From NCBI GenBank assembly GCA_943787795.1, contig CALSNU010000006.1, positions 448,001 through 512,000 of the forward strand: 64,000 nucleotides of DNA, given 5' to 3'. The notes beneath the pieces are model-generated. The model was not told where the DNA came from. It did no database searches and saw only the letters and a list, made by a program, of their open reading frames with translations. The position numbers were made by a program, and so were the translations under genes. Positions 5,139 through 15,737 of the stretch are shown piece by piece. How positions within the stretch are numbered: position 1 is the stretch's first letter; every line of letters starts with the position of its first letter. This DNA comes from an uncultured bacterium (GTDB lineage Bacteria > Planctomycetota > UBA1135 > GCA-002686595).

Positions 5139-6257
5139 TCAGCGCCCCTGCCCGAGGAAGGCCTTGATCGCGCGCGGGATCCCGGAGCGATCGTCCACGC
5201 CCGCCGTGACGAGGGCGGTCTCCTCCGGAAAGGCGGTGTCCAGGTCCTTCTTGAACTGGCCGGACCCGTAGGCGCTCTTCACCTGCCCGTAGCAGAACTG
5301 GTTCACACGAGGGAGCAGCTCATCCCGCACGAGAGAGACGCACCGGTCGGTGTCACGGGCGCTCCAGTTGTCCCCGTCGGAGTAGTGGAACGGGTAGATG
5401 TTGAAGTCGTCGGGGTGATAGCGCTCCTTGATCAGGTCGAGGCAGAGCTCGTACGCCGAGGAAATCTTGGTCCCCCCGGACTCCCGCAGGTGGAAGAAGG
5501 TGTCCTTGTCCACGACCTTGGCGGCCGCGTCGTGGACGATGTACACCACCTCAAGGTTGCGATACTGGCTGCGCAGCCACGTATCGATCCAGAACGCCTC
5601 GATGCGGACGATGTCCTTCTGCTCGCGCCCCATGGACCCGGAGACGTCCATCATGTGCATGATCACCGCGGACGACTCGGGGCGCGGCTTGGGCTTCAAC
5701 GCCCGGTAGAGGTGGTCCTCGCGGATCGGCGTCACGACGGGGCGCTCCAGGTCGAGCTCCCCGGCCGCGATGGTGCGGACGAGCGCACGACGGAACGTCC
5801 GACGGAAGTGCCTCAGCGACTGCGGCCCTTGCCCTCGAATCCCGCTCCATTGGCCGCCGCTGGCGTCCAGCTCATCGCGCCCACGGGGCAGGATGTTCGG
5901 GAGCCCGAGCTCCTCCCCGAGCATCGAGGCCAGCTCCTCGAGCTCGACCTCCGCCTCGAGAATGTGGGTCCCCTCCTGCTCGCCCGCGCCCCCGGCGCCG
6001 CCGTCCGCCTCCCCATCGCGCCCGTCCGCGGCGTCGCCCACCTCCCCGGGCCCCTGCCCGACCCCGCCATCATTCGAGCCGAAGCGAAAGCGAGGGAGCT
6101 CGACGGAGGGAACAGGAACCGAGACGACACGGTCCCCGCGCTTCCCGATCAGCTCCGAGGAGGCGAGGTACCGCTGCAGGTCCTCGCGGATCCGGCCACG
6201 CACCACCTCCTTGAAGCGCGCGCGGTCACGGTCGATCCTGTAGATCTGTCCGCCCAT
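5139..6257 (-). CDS. DUF444 / YeaH-YhbH family protein (vWA-like)
   Basis: MMDVSGSM, ESGGTKISSAY and YPFHYSDGDNW motifs; lies between prkA and spoVR. Confidence 0.92.
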   Translation of the reverse strand: MGGQIYRIDRDRARFKEVVRGRIREDLQRYLASSELIGKRGDRVVSVPVPSVELPRFRFGSNDGGVGQGPGEVGDAADGRDGEADGGAGGAGEQEGTHILEAEVELEELASMLGEELGLPNILPRGRDELDASGGQWSGIRGQGPQSLRHFRRTFRRALVRTIAAGELDLERPVVTPIREDHLYRALKPKPRPESSAVIMHMMDVSGSMGREQKDIVRIEAFWIDTWLRSQYRNLEVVYIVHDAAAKVVDKDTFFHLRESGGTKISSAYELCLDLIKERYHPDDFNIYPFHYSDGDNWSARDTDRCVSLVRDELLPRVNQFCYGQVKSAYGSGQFKKDLDTAFPEETALVTAGVDDRSGIPRAIKAFLGQGR

Positions 6258-6266
6258 GGGTCCCGG

Positions 6267-8423
<2,157 letters not shown>

Positions 8424-8992: not shown

Positions 8993-9086
8993 CCATCAGG
9001 TCGCGGGGTCCATCAGGTAGCGGGGTCCATCAGGTCGCGGGGTCCACTCAGGTCGCGGGGTCCCTCAGGTCATGGAACCCATCAGG
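8993..9086. repeat. 17-bp tandem repeat CCATCAGGTCGCGGGGT, 5 units plus a partial unit containing the smc stop codon
   Basis: Units start at 8993, 9010, 9027, 9044, 9062 and 9079. Confidence 0.92.
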
Positions 9087-12000
9087 CCTCGTCGGCCACG
9101 GGCTCCACGCTGGGCTCGTCAGCCCCTTCGCTTGCAGGGGGCTCCACCGCCGAGGCATCCGGCCGGTGGACCGTGAGTTCCTTGACCGGCTCACCGGATT
9201 CGTCGAGGTCACCAGGTGCACCTGGAAGGGGCTCCGCGCCGGCCTCCCGGTCACGGGACTTGCCGGTGGACTCGGGGGCAAACTCGTCGATCTCGTCGAG
9301 CTCTACCGCCACGAATCGCGACACGCCCTTGACCTGCATCGTGACTCCGTAGAGCGCCTGAGAGGCGGCCATGGTGCCCTTGTTGTGGGTCACCACGATG
9401 AACTGGGTCGACTTGCGGAAGCGCTCGAGCATCCCGAGGAAGCGGTCGATGTTCGCGTCGTCCAGCGCCGCGTCCACCTCGTCCAGCACGCAGAAGGGGC
9501 TGGGGCGCGCCTCGAAGACGGCGAACAGCAGCGCCAGCGCCGTCATGGTCCGCTGACCACCCGACAGGAGCCCGATGGCGAGCAGCTCGCGACCCGGCGG
9601 GCGCGCGACGATCTCCACCCCAGCCTCGAGCACGTCCACCCCCTCCTCGAGGCGGATGTCGGCCTTGCCCCCGCCGAAGAGCAGGCGGAAGATCTGCTGG
9701 AAGTTACCGCGGACCTCCTCGAACGTCTCCACGAAGAGGCGGCGGCTCTCCTCGTCGATGGTGCTGATGGTCTCGCGCAGGGCGCGTCGCGCCTCGGCCA
9801 GATCCGACGCCTGGGTCTCGAGATGCTCCAGGCGCGAGCCGACCTCTTCGAGCTCGTGCACTGCCTCCACGTTGACCGGCCCGAGACGGTCCAGCTGCGC
9901 GCGCACGGCGGCGACCTCCTTCTCGAAGGCCTCGAGCTCGTCGCCCGGCATGATCTCGGCGGCCTCCACCGCGAACGCCTCGCGGAGCGCAGCCTCGTCG
10001 ATGCCCAGCTCCTCATCCGCCCGGCCGACCACCTCGCGCTGGCCGATCTCGGCCGCCTGGGCCTCCATGCGCTGGTTCGCGAGCGCTTCAGAGCTCCGAT
10101 CGAGCTCGCCCTGCACGGCCTCGGATTCCCGGCGGATCTCCGTGATGCGCTGGGCGCCGCTGCGCTCGTCCTCACGGAGGCGCTCGAGGCGCTCACCGAG
10201 CTCCGTCTGCTGCTCGGTCAGCACGTCGGAGTCGGCATTGATCTTCTCGATGTCCGAGCGACCCTCGTCTGCGCTGGCGCCATAGGTCTGGACCCGGCCC
10301 TTGCTCCGGTCGATCTCGGCCGCGGTATCCGTGATGAGTCGATCGAGGTCGCTGATGCGCTGCTCGAGCCCGGAGGACTCCGCCGTGGCAGAGGTCAACT
10401 CGACCTGGGCGCGGCCCTCCTCACGCTGAAGGTCCTCCCGTTCGGCTTCGAGCTGGCGACGCCCCTTCTCCATCTGTTCGAGCCGGGCATTCTCCGCCTC
10501 GAAGGCCTCGGCTGCTTGCTCCTTACGAGCGGACGCCTCCTGGAGATCCGACTCGACGCGCGCAAGCTCGCCCTGGGCCTTCGCGCGCTCCTCGCCGTGG
10601 CTCTCGAGGGCGGACTCAAGGTCCGCCAGGCGCGCGGTGCTCGAGACGACGAGCGACTCCGCCTCGCCGTGGGCCTCGACCGCGGCGTCCCGGGCCTCCG
10701 TGGAGGCCGCGAGCTGAGCCTGCAGCTCCGCGACGGCGGCTTCCGACTGCTGGATCTCGGTGTCCTTCTGCTCGATCTCGGCGGCGAGCTTGGCGATGGA
10801 GCGCTCGAGCTCCGCTGCGCTGGAGCGCCTCCCCACGAAGCCCTGGCTCAGCTCACGGTGGCCGCCAACGAGGCCCGCGGCGTCCACGAACTCGCCCCGC
10901 GGCGTGACAAATCGCCAGCCGGGCTCCCGCCCGACCAGATCGAGCGCGAGGTCGAGGCTGGAGACCACCACCACATCACAGAAGAGCGCGTGGACCAGCG
11001 GCCGCATGGACTCGTCGCACTGGACAAGATCCCCGAGTCGGCCCTCGACGCCGGCGCCGAACCGAGCGAAGAGCGCGAAGTCAGAGGGCGGCGGACAGTC
11101 CGGAGCGCCGACGCCGGGCGGCACGACCACGCCGACCTGCCCCACCTGCTCTGACTCGCACCAGTCCACGATTCGACGGGCCACGTGGGCGTCCCGTGCC
11201 ACGAGGGCGTGGGCTCTCTCGCCGAGCACCGCGTCGATGGCGCGCGCCAGGCGTGTGTCTGCGCGGAGCTGGTCCGCGACCAGGCCGAGGAGGTCGTCCT
11301 GATGGCAGGGGCCGCCGGCCTCACCGGCCGCCTCCAGGACCCGGCGAGCGCCCCCCGACAGGTCCTCGAGCTCTCGGTCCCGATCCATGAGGGCCTCGAC
11401 CTTGCTCTGCAGCCCGGCGCGCTCCACCCGGAGGCCAGAGCGCTCGGCGCGCCCCCTCTCAAGGCCTTCGCGCCCTGACCCGAGGTCGGCGCGGACGGTC
11501 TCCAGAGAGCGATCCGCGCCCTCGAGCACCGACACCGCCGACTCGAGCGACCCCTGCGCCCCGAGCAACGTCTCCTGGACCTCGCCTGCCTGGGTCTCCG
11601 AGCGCTCGAAGCGCTCCGTGACACGGGCGAGCCGCTCGGTCATGGGCGGGATCGCCTCCCGCAGGTGAACGATCTTGTTCTCGCTCGCGGTGCGCTGGTG
11701 CAGCGTATCCAGCACCCGCTCGTTCTGCGCCTCGACCTCGACCCGCAGCTGCTTGTACGTCTTCCCGAGCTCCCGGCTCTGGGACGTCAGGCTGGTCGCG
11801 CGCTCTTCGGCAGCGCGAGTTCGCTCGCGGAGCGCGTCGATCTCGCCGGTGATCCGAGCGAGCTCTTCTTCTCGCTCGGTGAGCTGGACGCCGAGGGCAG
11901 CGGCGCGCTCGGTCTCCTCCTCGGTGCTCGCCGTCCAGGACGCGATGCGCATGGCGAGCTGGCTCTTGCGCTCCTCGAGGGCCCGCAGGTCCCCCGAGAT

Positions 12001-12879
12001 CTGACCGACCTCGGCGCTGACGGTGCCGAGCTCGGCCACCACCGTGCTCCGCTCGGCCTCGCGCTCCTCGATCCCCTCCTCACACTCAGAGCGGCGTTGG
12101 CGGAGGCCCTCGACCCCGCCCTCGAGCTCCTCGATGGCCGGCCTCAGGACCTCGAGGCTGCCCTCTGCGGCGAGCAGGCGGTGGGAGAGCAGGCGGGTCC
12201 GCCCGGTGGTCCACTCCGCCTTGGCGGTGACGTACTTCTCGGCCTTGGTGGCCTGGATCTTCAGGGACCGCACCCGGCTCCGGAGCTCCCCCATCAGATC
12301 GTCCAGCCGCTCCACGTCCTGCTCACAGCGCTTCAGCCGGAGCTCGGTCTCGTGGCGACGCTGGCGGTAACGACTGATGCCAGCGGCCTCCTCGAAGATC
12401 GCGCGGCGCTGGGCGGGGTTGGCCGAGAGGACCGCGTCGATGCGGCCCTGCTCCAGCACCGAGTAGCCCCGGCTCCCCAGGCCCGTATCAAAGAGCAGGT
12501 CCTTGACGTCCTTGAGGCGCACCCGCTGGCCGTCGATGAGGTACTCCCCCTCGCCGCTGGCGTACAGCCGACGGCTGATGGCGATCTCGGGGCCACGCTC
12601 CTCGAGCACCCCCTGATCGTTGTCGAGCACCATGGTGACCTCGGCGGTCCCCATGCCAGGGCGGCTCGCGGACCCCTTGAAGATGACGTCGGTCATCCCC
12701 GAGCCCCTCATGGAGGTGGGCCGCGTCTCTCCGAGCACCCAGCGGACGGCGTCCACCACGTTGCTCTTGCCGCAGCCATTCGGGCCGACGATGCCCGTGA
12801 GGGTCGTCTGCCCGAAGTCGATGACGGTCCGATCGGCGAACGACTTGAAGCCGAAGAGCTCGAGGCGTTTGAGACGCAT
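9082..12879 (-). CDS. smc: Chromosome segregation protein SMC
   Basis: FKSFAD, Walker A GPNGCGKSN, long coiled coils with a hinge, LSGGQ signature, Walker B FCVLDEVDAALD and VTHNK. Confidence 0.97.
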   Translation of the reverse strand: MRLKRLELFGFKSFADRTVIDFGQTTLTGIVGPNGCGKSNVVDAVRWVLGETRPTSMRGSGMTDVIFKGSASRPGMGTAEVTMVLDNDQGVLEERGPEIAISRRLYASGEGEYLIDGQRVRLKDVKDLLFDTGLGSRGYSVLEQGRIDAVLSANPAQRRAIFEEAAGISRYRQRRHETELRLKRCEQDVERLDDLMGELRSRVRSLKIQATKAEKYVTAKAEWTTGRTRLLSHRLLAAEGSLEVLRPAIEELEGGVEGLRQRRSECEEGIEEREAERSTVVAELGTVSAEVGQISGDLRALEERKSQLAMRIASWTASTEEETERAAALGVQLTEREEELARITGEIDALRERTRAAEERATSLTSQSRELGKTYKQLRVEVEAQNERVLDTLHQRTASENKIVHLREAIPPMTERLARVTERFERSETQAGEVQETLLGAQGSLESAVSVLEGADRSLETVRADLGSGREGLERGRAERSGLRVERAGLQSKVEALMDRDRELEDLSGGARRVLEAAGEAGGPCHQDDLLGLVADQLRADTRLARAIDAVLGERAHALVARDAHVARRIVDWCESEQVGQVGVVVPPGVGAPDCPPPSDFALFARFGAGVEGRLGDLVQCDESMRPLVHALFCDVVVVSSLDLALDLVGREPGWRFVTPRGEFVDAAGLVGGHRELSQGFVGRRSSAAELERSIAKLAAEIEQKDTEIQQSEAAVAELQAQLAASTEARDAAVEAHGEAESLVVSSTARLADLESALESHGEERAKAQGELARVESDLQEASARKEQAAEAFEAENARLEQMEKGRRQLEAEREDLQREEGRAQVELTSATAESSGLEQRISDLDRLITDTAAEIDRSKGRVQTYGASADEGRSDIEKINADSDVLTEQQTELGERLERLREDERSGAQRITEIRRESEAVQGELDRSSEALANQRMEAQAAEIGQREVVGRADEELGIDEAALREAFAVEAAEIMPGDELEAFEKEVAAVRAQLDRLGPVNVEAVHELEEVGSRLEHLETQASDLAEARRALRETISTIDEESRRLFVETFEEVRGNFQQIFRLLFGGGKADIRLEEGVDVLEAGVEIVARPPGRELLAIGLLSGGQRTMTALALLFAVFEARPSPFCVLDEVDAALDDANIDRFLGMLERFRKSTQFIVVTHNKGTMAASQALYGVTMQVKGVSRFVAVELDEIDEFAPESTGKSRDREAGAEPLPGAPGDLDESGEPVKELTVHRPDASAVEPPASEGADEPSVEPVADEA

Positions 12880-12944: not shown

Positions 12945-15155
12945 TCAAAAGAGAGACTTCCCGCCCTCCCTGGATCCGGAATGGGGGCCTGCCCCACGAT
13001 GGGCTTGAAATTGCCTCCAGAGCTCGAATCGGGGCGTTTCGGCGCCTCCGACCCCTGCGGCATCGGGGCCGGGCGTCGACCTGATTTCTGGGGCCGAGGG
13101 GCCCCCGGCGTCCCCGGTCCCAGGGAAGAGTCCCCCCGCGGGTGAGGTCTCGAACAGGGTGGCGAGCCCTCGAGCCCGGCCAGGCCCCTCCTGAACCGCC
13201 TGCAGATCCGTCCCTCCGAGTCCGCTCACCAGGCCCCCGTAGGCCTCCACGCGCTCGGCCTCGGGCCGAGGCATGTCCTCGAAGAGGCGGGCCTGGGTGG
13301 GCCCCTCACCGGGCGCATCCGCCGCGGCAAAGCGCTCCGCCGCGGGCCGCCGGAACGCCCCCGAGACCTCCACTTGGAGCTCTGCCATCCGCCCCAGCCG
13401 CGCCCCCGCGTCCCGCAGGACCCCCAGCACCTGCGCGCCCTGATCCGCCTTGGCGGCCCCGTCCCCGAGGATCCGCAGCGCCTCGTGGAGCCCGACCGGC
13501 ACCAGCAGATGGACGGCTCTCGAAGCGATGAGCTCCCCGTGACGCTGCCGGGCCTCCCCCTGAAAGCGCGCCAGGGCACCGCTCGCCTCGACCGCTGTGG
13601 CCACCCGCTCGAGCAGCAGCTGGAGGAACCGCTCCTCTCGCCACGGGCCCGCCAGCCGGGCGAGTCGCGGCAGGTTGATCGCGACCGCGGAGGCCACGGC
13701 CAAGGGCCCTCGCTCCCGGCGGCGGCGGTGGCAGCCCGGCCCCACCCAACGGACCCCCTCTGGCGCCCAGACCGGCACCAGATGTCCAGACCCAAGGAGC
13801 GCCTCGGCCGCGGCCAGGGTCTCGGCTCGAACCTCGCCCCGGGGCGCCGCCGCGATGGCGTCCTCGACCTCCGCGAACGTGGCGTGGACCTGGACCGCCG
13901 CCCCGCCGTCTGCCGCCGCCCGGCCAAGGCACCGAATGAGGCGCCCCGCGGCGACCCCTCGCTTCCCCCCGAACCGGGCCACCCCGAGCGAGCGGCCCGA
14001 CGCCTCCGCTGCGGCGCCAAGGCTGCAAAGGAGATCAACCGCCGGGGCCTCGCGCCGCTCGAAGGAGGCACCGCCCGGCTCCATGACGGTGGCCAGCGCC
14101 CCCGCGAGGTCCTCGATGAAGAGACCGCGGCCCGCGTCGCGGAGCGCAACACCGACCCGCCGGACCAGGCGAAAGGCGCCGCCGCGCGCCACCGGCTCAC
14201 CGCCCCCGAGCAGGGCAGCCGAGAGCGACAGGGAGAGGACTCGGTGGGGCGCGCTCGCGCCCATCACGTGAAGATCGCCCCGTCGGTGCGCCTCGGCGCT
14301 CTCGGACGAGAGCACGTCCTGAAGCGCCCAGCGCTCGATGAGCGCCTCCCCCGAGACCTCGTCGAACGCCCTGCGCTCCGCTCGATCGCTCCAGGCGCAG
14401 GGGCCGGGGACCCGGTCCAGTTGATCCGGCCGGCTCCCATGGAGCGCAGCCGTGAGCTCCCGGCGGGGCAGCCCGACTGCCTCGTGCTGACGGAGGGCGC
14501 CCTCGAGACCGGCCTCAAGAAGCGCATGGTTCACGAGCTCGCGCACCAACCCGCCGGTCACGCGTCGGAGGGTGGTGCCGCTCAGGAAGGTCTCCACCCG
14601 GGCGGCCACCGCCGTGGCCTGCTCGGCGCCCAGCCCCGCCTCCTCCACGAGCCCGGAGGCCACCCGCCCGGGGTCAAACGGCCGGGATCCGTCTCGGCCC
14701 TCGACCACGGGCAGCCGCGCGGCGCCGATCGAGGGCGCGCTGCTCCGACTCTCCCTCAGGACCTCGCGTGCCCGGGCACGCCGGTCCCTCGCAAGAATGA
14801 ACTCCCGGGCCACATCCGTCTGCCCAAGCTCCACCAGCGCACGCTCCACCATCCCCCCGACCTCGGCGGGATCCACGTGGGCAGGGCGCCGCTCCCCATC
14901 GCTGGGGAGCGAGAACCTGACGATGTCCACCACCTCATCCACGAGGGCAGAATCAGCCGTCCCGGCCGCCACGCGCGCGCGCTCGACGCTCTCACGGAGG
15001 CGAGCCTCTTCGAAGGGCTCCACCGATCCAGGGAGCCGAGCGGCGGGCTCACCGAATGCAGCCGACGAACCGCGCCAAACCGGCGACGGTCCCATGGCGA
15101 CCGGGGGCGTCGCGTCCACGCCCTCGGAGCCAAACAGCCCCTCTTCCACGGACAT
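12945..15155 (-). CDS. Degenerate anaerobic ribonucleoside-triphosphate reductase (NrdD)-like protein with two ATP-cones; no glycyl-radical motif
   Basis: Two ATP-cone-like segments followed by NrdD-like barrel motifs (AEAHRRGDLHV, AINLPRLA, VGLHEAL, AAERFAAAD). No C-terminal CxxC/CxxC ribbon or RxxGY. Directly downstream of nrdR. Confidence 0.72.
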   Translation of the reverse strand: MSVEEGLFGSEGVDATPPVAMGPSPVWRGSSAAFGEPAARLPGSVEPFEEARLRESVERARVAAGTADSALVDEVVDIVRFSLPSDGERRPAHVDPAEVGGMVERALVELGQTDVAREFILARDRRARAREVLRESRSSAPSIGAARLPVVEGRDGSRPFDPGRVASGLVEEAGLGAEQATAVAARVETFLSGTTLRRVTGGLVRELVNHALLEAGLEGALRQHEAVGLPRRELTAALHGSRPDQLDRVPGPCAWSDRAERRAFDEVSGEALIERWALQDVLSSESAEAHRRGDLHVMGASAPHRVLSLSLSAALLGGGEPVARGGAFRLVRRVGVALRDAGRGLFIEDLAGALATVMEPGGASFERREAPAVDLLCSLGAAAEASGRSLGVARFGGKRGVAAGRLIRCLGRAAADGGAAVQVHATFAEVEDAIAAAPRGEVRAETLAAAEALLGSGHLVPVWAPEGVRWVGPGCHRRRRERGPLAVASAVAINLPRLARLAGPWREERFLQLLLERVATAVEASGALARFQGEARQRHGELIASRAVHLLVPVGLHEALRILGDGAAKADQGAQVLGVLRDAGARLGRMAELQVEVSGAFRRPAAERFAAADAPGEGPTQARLFEDMPRPEAERVEAYGGLVSGLGGTDLQAVQEGPGRARGLATLFETSPAGGLFPGTGDAGGPSAPEIRSTPGPDAAGVGGAETPRFELWRQFQAHRGAGPHSGSREGGKSLF

Positions 15156-15167
15156 CCGATGCTCCGG

Positions 15168-15737
15168 TCAGGACCCGTCGCGAGTCTCGGTCTGCGGCTC
15201 GGAATCCGGGGGACTGGCGGCCTGCCGATCCCCTGAACGGTCGCCCGGCTGCCCATCGAGAACCGGGTCGTCCAGGCCCTCGACGTCTTCGTCGAGGATG
15301 GTCTCCAGCTCGGACATGAACTGCCCCACGTCCTTGAACTCGCGGTACACGCTGGCGAAGCGAACGTAGGCCACCTGGTCGAGCTGGCGCAGCTCGTCCA
15401 TCACCAGTGAGCCGATGACCGAGCTCGGGACCTCTCGGTCGTACTCACCCTGACACCGCCCCTCGACGCGCATGACCGCCTCCTCGATGTCCGCCATGGA
15501 CACGGGCAGCTTCTCGCACGCCCGAAGCATCCCGTGGAGGATGCGGTCGCGGTCAAAGCGGACGCGCTCCCCGTTCTTCTTGATCACCCTGAGCGGGCTC
15601 TCCTCGATGCGCTCGTACGTGGTGAAGCGCATGAAGCACTCGAGGCACTCGCGGCGCCGCCGGATCACCACGCCATCCGCGGACGTCCGTGAGTCGACCA
15701 CGCGGTCGTCGTCGGAGGAGCAGCGGGGGCACTTCAA
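15168..15737 (-). CDS. nrdR: Transcriptional repressor NrdR
   Basis: From TTG 15737: KCPRC...VVDSR...IRRRRECLECFMRFTTYE, an ATP-cone, and DQVAYVRFASVYREF. Confidence 0.96.
   Translation of the reverse strand: MKCPRCSSDDDRVVDSRTSADGVVIRRRRECLECFMRFTTYERIEESPLRVIKKNGERVRFDRDRILHGMLRACEKLPVSMADIEEAVMRVEGRCQGEYDREVPSSVIGSLVMDELRQLDQVAYVRFASVYREFKDVGQFMSELETILDEDVEGLDDPVLDGQPGDRSGDRQAASPPDSEPQTETRDGS

Follow-up and report, generated by a model that had tools for sequence, protein, structure and literature searches.

What does a ribonucleotide reductase (RNR) do once its chemistry is gone? The question is raised by a gene in a 64,000-nucleotide stretch of DNA (hereafter the window; positions 448,001 to 512,000 of contig CALSNU010000006.1, GenBank assembly GCA_943787795.1) from an uncultured bacterium of the Planctomycetota. 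The gene, on the minus strand at 12945..15155 between nrdR and smc, encodes a 736-residue protein (P0001) with two ATP-cone folds and the barrel of the anaerobic, oxygen-sensitive class III RNR, NrdD. Judged from its sequence it is dead as a reductase, and we refer to it as pseudo-NrdD. An initial annotation, made from the DNA letters alone, had proposed a retained pseudoenzyme that senses nucleotides. We favour a different role, with a probability of about 0.5: pseudo-NrdD may be a non-catalytic, clamp-binding adaptor that docks on the beta sliding clamp via a QARLF motif in a loop of its barrel.

The origin of the protein was traced by profile and by fold. Pfam finds the ATP-cone in two stretches (E 1e-11), and its NRDD match is weak and under the cut-off (residues 489–539, E 0.0033). 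A profile of distant relatives matched S. thermophilus NrdD at E 4e-36. A structure model built from 87 sequences (mean predicted local distance difference test score, pLDDT, 86.8) retrieved class III RNRs as its top structural matches in Foldseek, with 9D3X at E 6e-12, and superposes on T. maritima NrdD (4CON) with a Z score of 20.9 and a root-mean-square deviation of 3.9 over 414 aligned residues. The ESM Atlas returned ATP-cone/NRDD clusters alone, mostly from Planctomycetota. The two cones and the NrdD barrel of the initial annotation are therefore confirmed, the former by Pfam and the latter, an RNR-type alpha/beta barrel as in class III enzymes (residues 227–721; 12993..14477, minus strand), by profile and fold. 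The match to an intact two-cone NrdD from the same phylum is collinear (HHalign probability 100, E 7e-51), and pseudo-NrdD is NrdD by descent, from such an enzyme. It shares the barrel fold and the ATP-cones with class III NrdD (S. thermophilus 9D3X, P. copri 8P2S, T. maritima 4CON) and with the intact planctomycete two-cone NrdD of the SHS/CCR type (e.g., at locus L108), and with the latter also the gene position after nrdR. Unlike these, it has no HxHD, SHS, NxN flap, radical Cys, zinc site, glycyl loop or NrdG; it has lost the contacts of cone 1 and has gained a QxxLF motif.

In the alignment to intact planctomycete NrdD, HIHD has become HVMG, YCSSHS has become VLSLSL and ACCR has become GCHR, and the zinc/glycyl domain is missing; neither a CxxC pair nor RxxGY occurs in the 736 residues. 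HxHD and the NxN flap are the substrate motifs of class III RNR (PMC11226230, section 10; motif roles also in the available part of PMC9531940), and the connector that would form the flap has no Asn. Since SCCR corresponds to MGCR of T4 NrdD (available part of PMC4493059), the radical position in pseudo-NrdD is H476. This position, the second Cys of SCCR and the site of the thiyl radical, is Cys in 0/87 sequences. It lies in a relic of the finger loop (residues 468–477; 13725..13754, minus strand), which reads GPGCHR for the ancestral ACCR and ends in the invariant R477. The adjacent C475 was considered as a surviving radical Cys, being invariant in the first 16 sequences, and was rejected: it aligns to the first Cys of CCR, and in the wider set it is Cys in 47/87 and L, V, I, A, G or T in the other 40.

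The genome offers no help to the lost chemistry. In the source assembly (84.9% complete) we found no NrdG (highest TIGR02495 score 47 bits, cut-off 131) and no NRDD match, and nrdG is missing from the locus across the family too. With the query used, a stand-alone glycyl-loop gene was found neither in this genome nor in eight family genomes. The genome does encode NrdAB of class I, preceded by matches to the NrdR box (G000:C4:552057-552156; 0–1 mismatch to the consensus), and a second RNR barrel that we read as class II; a class I or II barrel is present in 36 of 40 relatives searched, the remaining four belonging to family f41. The initial annotation had seen no catalytic Cys, CxxC..CxxC metal site, RxxGY or NrdG, and had asked for a separate active RNR; the searches bear it out on each of these, with the refinement that one finger-loop Cys, C475, survives next to the radical position. 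That pseudo-NrdD is still an enzyme, with a glycyl-radical protein acting in trans or with new chemistry through C475, is thus highly improbable. Stand-alone glycyl-loop genes do exist in f41 (4/4) and in one f83 genome, and C475 is retained in 11/11 of the closest sequences. Against this, the radical position is never Cys, C475 is replaced in 40 sequences, the substrate motifs are gone, neither the glycyl-loop gene nor NrdG was found as described above, and class I and II RNRs are at hand.

The dead gene is nevertheless conserved. In pairwise comparison with four close loci, its ratio of nonsynonymous to synonymous substitution rates (dN/dS) comes to 0.18, 0.25, 0.23 and 0.28 (Nei–Gojobori; dS 0.7–1.0, hence approximate), with 0.14–0.23 in the barrel and 0.07–0.22 in cone 2, as against 0.07–0.08 in smc and 0.12–0.18 in nrdR. 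The dead form is common to relatives in 68 genomes. Fifteen relatives with 36–80% identity have a similar length and likewise miss the tail, and among 301 representatives that a profile search retrieved at E < 1e-30, none of the top matches of at least 580 residues has a C-terminal RxxGY. A frameshift hiding a C-terminal tail, which the initial annotation had named as a possible refutation, was rejected: relatives end alike, and in contigs of four public runs no indels were found inside the gene. Among named genomes, those of Saltatorellus ferox (L016) and Engelhardtia mirabilis (L047) are closest; at L068 and L074 the gene is broken in the assemblies. Relatives are labelled 'ribonucleoside-triphosphate reductase' in their sources, which makes the family an annotation trap. 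Across the phylum, 238 of 301 genomes were matched, weak cone-only matches counted. From 150 listed places (180 more lie beyond these) 116 were fetched, and after 10 truncated, frameshifted or second copies had been set aside, 106 remained: 12 intact, 6 with SHS and CCR but without RxxGY, and 88 dead, the last from 30 families. Fold, lost catalytic parts, dN/dS and dead copies in 39 families of the phylum sample together support the retained pseudoenzyme of the initial annotation; that pseudo-NrdD is a pseudoenzyme kept under selection is near certain.

What, then, is being selected? The best-conserved functional signal, which the initial annotation did not mention, is QxxLF. In pseudo-NrdD it reads QARLF (residues 621–625; 13281..13295, minus strand) and has the form of a beta-clamp motif within an apparently flexible loop, residues 621–630 being coil in the model with a pLDDT of 63. 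Among 77 aligned family proteins, Q621 is found in 76 and L624 and F625 in all, making these the top-ranked columns amid variable flanks. The motif is missing from the alignment's 10 most distant members, which were set aside after this was seen; the C-termini of two of these resemble those of the sister family f4. The motif is present in 65 of 68 loci that had been chosen by other motifs (the misses are one QSTFF variant and two broken assemblies) and in 7/7 family genomes of the phylum sample. The background is 50 motifs in 836 long open reading frames (6%), and neighbours at the same loci carry it in 0/67 (nrdR), 1/65 (smc), 2/58 (mnmE) and 1/51 (yidC) cases. It lies at variable distances from two fixed residues, 4–14 residues from D613 and 10–68 from Y639, whereas the ancestral loop is fixed at 20–21 residues, as seen in 16 loops of copies still matching RxxA..D..YYTN. 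The motif also outlives the nucleotide contacts of the cones, being present where those of cone 1 are lost.

Beta-clamp motifs follow the consensus QL[S/D]LF, in which positions 1, 4 and 5 are the most important according to the available part of PMC3919608; Q-x-x-L-F with exactly these positions fixed is what pseudo-NrdD presents. The available text of PMC12926913 gives the consensus as QxxLF, and it is also a precedent for the setting: in PolA2, a QxxLF that lies in an unstructured loop, within a domain that is itself dead, is interpreted there as a clamp motif. The DnaN of the source genome (C2:566225-567322) is an ordinary beta clamp, and its clients carry comparable motifs: QSSMF in DnaE, QLGLF in MutS and QKTLF in DinB, with none found in MutL by the pattern used. 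The likeness to DnaE, MutS, DinB and PolA2 extends to motif form and conserved positions and probably to a location in a flexible loop. These clients, however, act on DNA, and the clamp contact of pseudo-NrdD is a predicted one. No RNR-fold protein with such a motif turned up in our searches.

The initial annotation proposed that the cones and the barrel could sense (d)NTPs. Both cones have the cone fold by Pfam and model. Nucleotide contacts in the cone of StNrdD are made by K19, R20, K31, Q79, Y98, Y101 and R105 (available part of PMC12662201); we scored these seven plus the conserved R102, which we added, as an eight-position signature. Cone 1 of pseudo-NrdD (residues 43–135; 14751..15029, minus strand) reads PLRGFARR at these positions versus KRKQYYRR in intact NrdD: the equivalents of K19, R20, Q79 and Y101 are lost, Y98 is F, K31 is R, and R105 is kept. 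Gly occupies the Q79 position throughout the P0001 subclade, S. ferox included. Cone 2 (residues 146–225; 14481..14720, minus strand) has strongly conserved helices and no KRDG hairpin, which is missing even in the intact ancestor-type enzyme. Because the ATP/dATP-binding residues are lost in P0001 and its subclade, nucleotide sensing by this protein is doubtful, and on this point the initial annotation is not supported. The full cone-1 set is kept in 17/18 intact-type planctomycete copies, 44/107 dead copies and 40/64 family loci (the 68 minus four truncated or broken ones), and family members with an intact cone may still sense nucleotides.

One could therefore picture a nucleotide sensor whose cones bind ATP/dATP and act on NrdR by cone–cone contacts, or on SMC. 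For pseudo-NrdD we consider this possible but doubtful. Apart from the retained contacts just listed, it draws on the cones being the last remnant where the gene has shrunk (genes of 136–209 residues directly after nrdR at L259–L261 of f2, L290 of f65 and L295 of f84) and on nrdR lying directly upstream in 67/67 family loci with upstream DNA. The residues lost in P0001 speak against it, and the position is inherited. Intact copies across the phylum have nrdR in 12/12, nrdG in 10/12 and smc within about 4.4 kb in 6/12 cases; for dead copies the figures are 76/88, 12/88 and 74/88. From these neighbours, the ancestral block is nrdR-nrdD-nrdG-smc. A place between nrdR and smc is thus no evidence of partnership with NrdR or SMC, to which the initial annotation had suggested a link, and synteny as proof of one was rejected, as some lineages also lose either link: no nrdR lies in the fetched flank of 12/88 dead copies, including all 11 of f54. 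In addition, NrdR is already a canonical sensor, with boxes before nrdAB. Like pseudo-NrdD, this neighbour has an ATP-cone and no catalytic function; it differs in its zinc-ribbon DNA-binding domain and its intact cone, neither of which pseudo-NrdD has.

QARLF is not the only LF motif. Pseudo-NrdD ends in KSLF (12948..12959, minus strand), a feature of the cone-degenerate subclade, and carries EGLF in its disordered N-terminal extension (residues 5–8; 15132..15143, minus strand). A terminal [ST]L[FY] of the KSLF type is found in 16/24 cone-degenerate family loci and 0/40 cone-intact ones, and an N-terminal motif of the EGLF type in 11/24 and 0/40. In other dead lineages, 20 copies have a C-terminal motif (f54 11/11, f47 2/2, f70 2/2, f79 1/1, f13 3/3, f16 1/1), and all 20 have lost the cone signature; these counts of terminal motifs and cone loss stem from kin, not from independent events. 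A motif between the cones occurs in 11 dead copies (f55 6/6, f89 2/2, f36, f63 and one of f27, probably by chance), that of f36 reading xP[TS]LFDD in 4/4 by eye. Among the 18 catalytically equipped copies, one has a clamp-type motif. The different positions imply separate gains, and a quick SMC+NrdR tree sets the motif-bearing groups apart with motif-free relatives in between. A wider scenario, which we hold tentatively and below even odds, is a repeated recruitment of dead class III reductases to the clamp within Planctomycetota, by motifs gained in a loop of the barrel, in the stretch between the two cones or at the C-terminal end, with cone-intact members as ATP/dATP sensors on the clamp and the P0001 subclade as a constitutive, multivalent adaptor.

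As a separate observation, the dead NrdD of f54 (L189, L196, L198, L201, L202, L209-L211, L214, L216, L217) keeps its zinc ribbon and has GQKSLF-like motifs at its C-terminus; no nrdR adjoins it, and an open reading frame of about 510 residues precedes smc.

Several points weigh against clamp binding. First, L624 aligns with a hydrophobic residue of intact NrdD (the V of VxG), so part of the motif's conservation is perhaps structural. Second, the terminal LF motifs of pseudo-NrdD come without the Q. Third, no motif is present in 69/107 dead copies, including the whole of families f4, f23, f24, f25, f52 and f77; clamp binding therefore cannot explain why the dead gene is kept phylum-wide. Fourth, in other families the gene is reduced to one or two cones or disappears, which suggests that the cones are the last part retained. 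Finally, the genomes compared are related and not independent samples.

Another alternative is a scaffold for another partner, SMC-ScpAB or a protein with a hydrophobic pocket, the QxxLF binding a non-clamp target or packing on the barrel. We judge this rather unlikely. The directly downstream gene is smc in 66/67 family loci with downstream DNA, and family-specific invariant residues lie elsewhere (ARRAGPWRE at 497–507, LGDG at 563–566, and R205). The smc link, though, is ancestral too, and yidC and mnmE are as constant around the 68 family loci as nrdR and smc, so that the wider yidC-mnmE-nrdR block is equally conserved. ScpA and ScpB are both present in 15/15 genomes searched, hence SMC is short of no subunit, and a fixed Q at this place is characteristic of clamp motifs. 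The clamp-binding adaptor remains our preferred reading.

A last alternative is that the gene is a slowly decaying relic, whose frame stays open chiefly so that translation runs on through the operon into smc. Erosion is indeed seen in the phylum. In another 40 nrdR loci, from genomes with a weak match or none, the products shorten to 550, 480, 380, about 200 (two cones) and 136 residues (one cone), and in four families (f30, f32, f35, f39) the gene is gone and nrdR adjoins smc; it is therefore dispensable in some lineages. The dN/dS is also above that of smc. For pseudo-NrdD this explanation is nonetheless improbable, given the dN/dS values of the barrel and cone 2, a fold predicted with confidence, and a new invariant motif within a loop otherwise free to vary. 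How often activity was lost can be only roughly gauged: the gene tree joins long branches, and the quick SMC+NrdR tree (48 rows, maximum two per family), with its weak backbone, gives four changes to inactive.

Other families show further states of the gene. In f80 (L113, L131) the glycyl position reads RIADY, Gly having become Asp, and the zinc site is kept, an early stage of inactivation. In f36, f55 and f89 (L150, L152, L156, L160, L162, L163, L170, L174, L178-L180, L206) an nrdG2 with CxxxCxxC lies between the dead NrdD and smc; with no other NrdD and no glycyl-loop gene found in these genomes, it is an orphan activase. In f41 (L124-L127), where class I/II RNR was found in 0/4, the sole NrdD has SHS, CCR, the zinc sites and nrdG but no RxxGY, and a separate gene of about 110 residues ending RVVGY...W occurs in 4/4 f41 and 1/2 f83 genomes (L114 is f83; L296-L300 also belong to this observation). 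The f41 system is probably a split class III RNR whose glycyl radical comes in trans from the small protein; pyruvate formate-lyase has a comparable spare-part glycyl-radical protein.

Within the window, nrdR (15168..15737, minus strand; TTG start at 15737) encodes a canonical repressor (TIGR00244, 193.7 bits, above the cut-off), and smc (9082..12879, minus strand) is the downstream neighbour inherited from the ancestral block. The three genes share a strand, with gaps of 12 nucleotides between nrdR and pseudo-NrdD and 65 between pseudo-NrdD and smc. The initial annotation had these gaps and the 736-residue frame right, and all peptides it quoted are in the translation; of its span, 12945..15737, the start stands, whereas 15737 is the start of nrdR and the pseudo-NrdD frame ends at 15155. 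No NrdR boxes were found near nrdR, the window holding 44 matches to the consensus versus 34 expected. DNA of the locus was found in marine metagenomes. Portions of the gene are covered by contigs from two metatranscriptome runs, in which almost all other bins are represented as well and which may contain DNA. Downstream of smc, at 5139-8423 (minus strand), lie genes for 718 and 372 residues, a putative PrkA-type kinase and its putative DUF444 partner; the 718-residue gene follows smc in 16/68 loci within the fetched flank.

How might such an adaptor work? The QARLF loop would dock the dead NrdD on the beta sliding clamp, DnaN, and the dimer of the old enzyme is perhaps kept. With less confidence, we suggest that ATP/dATP might gate this contact in those relatives whose cone 1 is intact, and that in the P0001 subclade, where the gate is apparently lost, the extra LF motifs at both disordered ends might add grip. 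At the clamp, we would guess, the protein could act on other clients, as their competitor or recruiter, and in this way contribute to linking replication with chromosome organisation. Dead RNRs with other jobs are known from viruses: UL45 and M45 of cytomegalovirus derive from class I RNR. According to the available part of PMC5469499, they are inactive homologues of the RNR large subunit, and like pseudo-NrdD they would be catalytic subunits without chemistry kept for protein contacts; they are viral and act on host signalling, whereas pseudo-NrdD is bacterial, class III and chromosomal.

We found no paper describing such a protein in the literature searched, though RNR databases or subscription journals might mention one; the available part of the Saltatorellota preprint (10.1101/817700) contains neither 'ribonucleotide' nor 'SMC'. 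New here are the internal QARLF motif, the three motif positions in dead lineages and the loss of cone contacts in the P0001 subclade. Two cultured strains bracket the question: S. ferox has the motif and a degenerate cone, E. mirabilis the motif and an intact cone. That a core enzyme is kept without its chemistry across much of a phylum points to a second job, and a former maker of DNA building blocks is now perhaps an adaptor at the replication fork. If clamp binding is true, an RNR fold sits on the clamp, with a bearing on communication between nucleotide supply and the fork, and the cone-intact members would link nucleotide pools to the replication fork.

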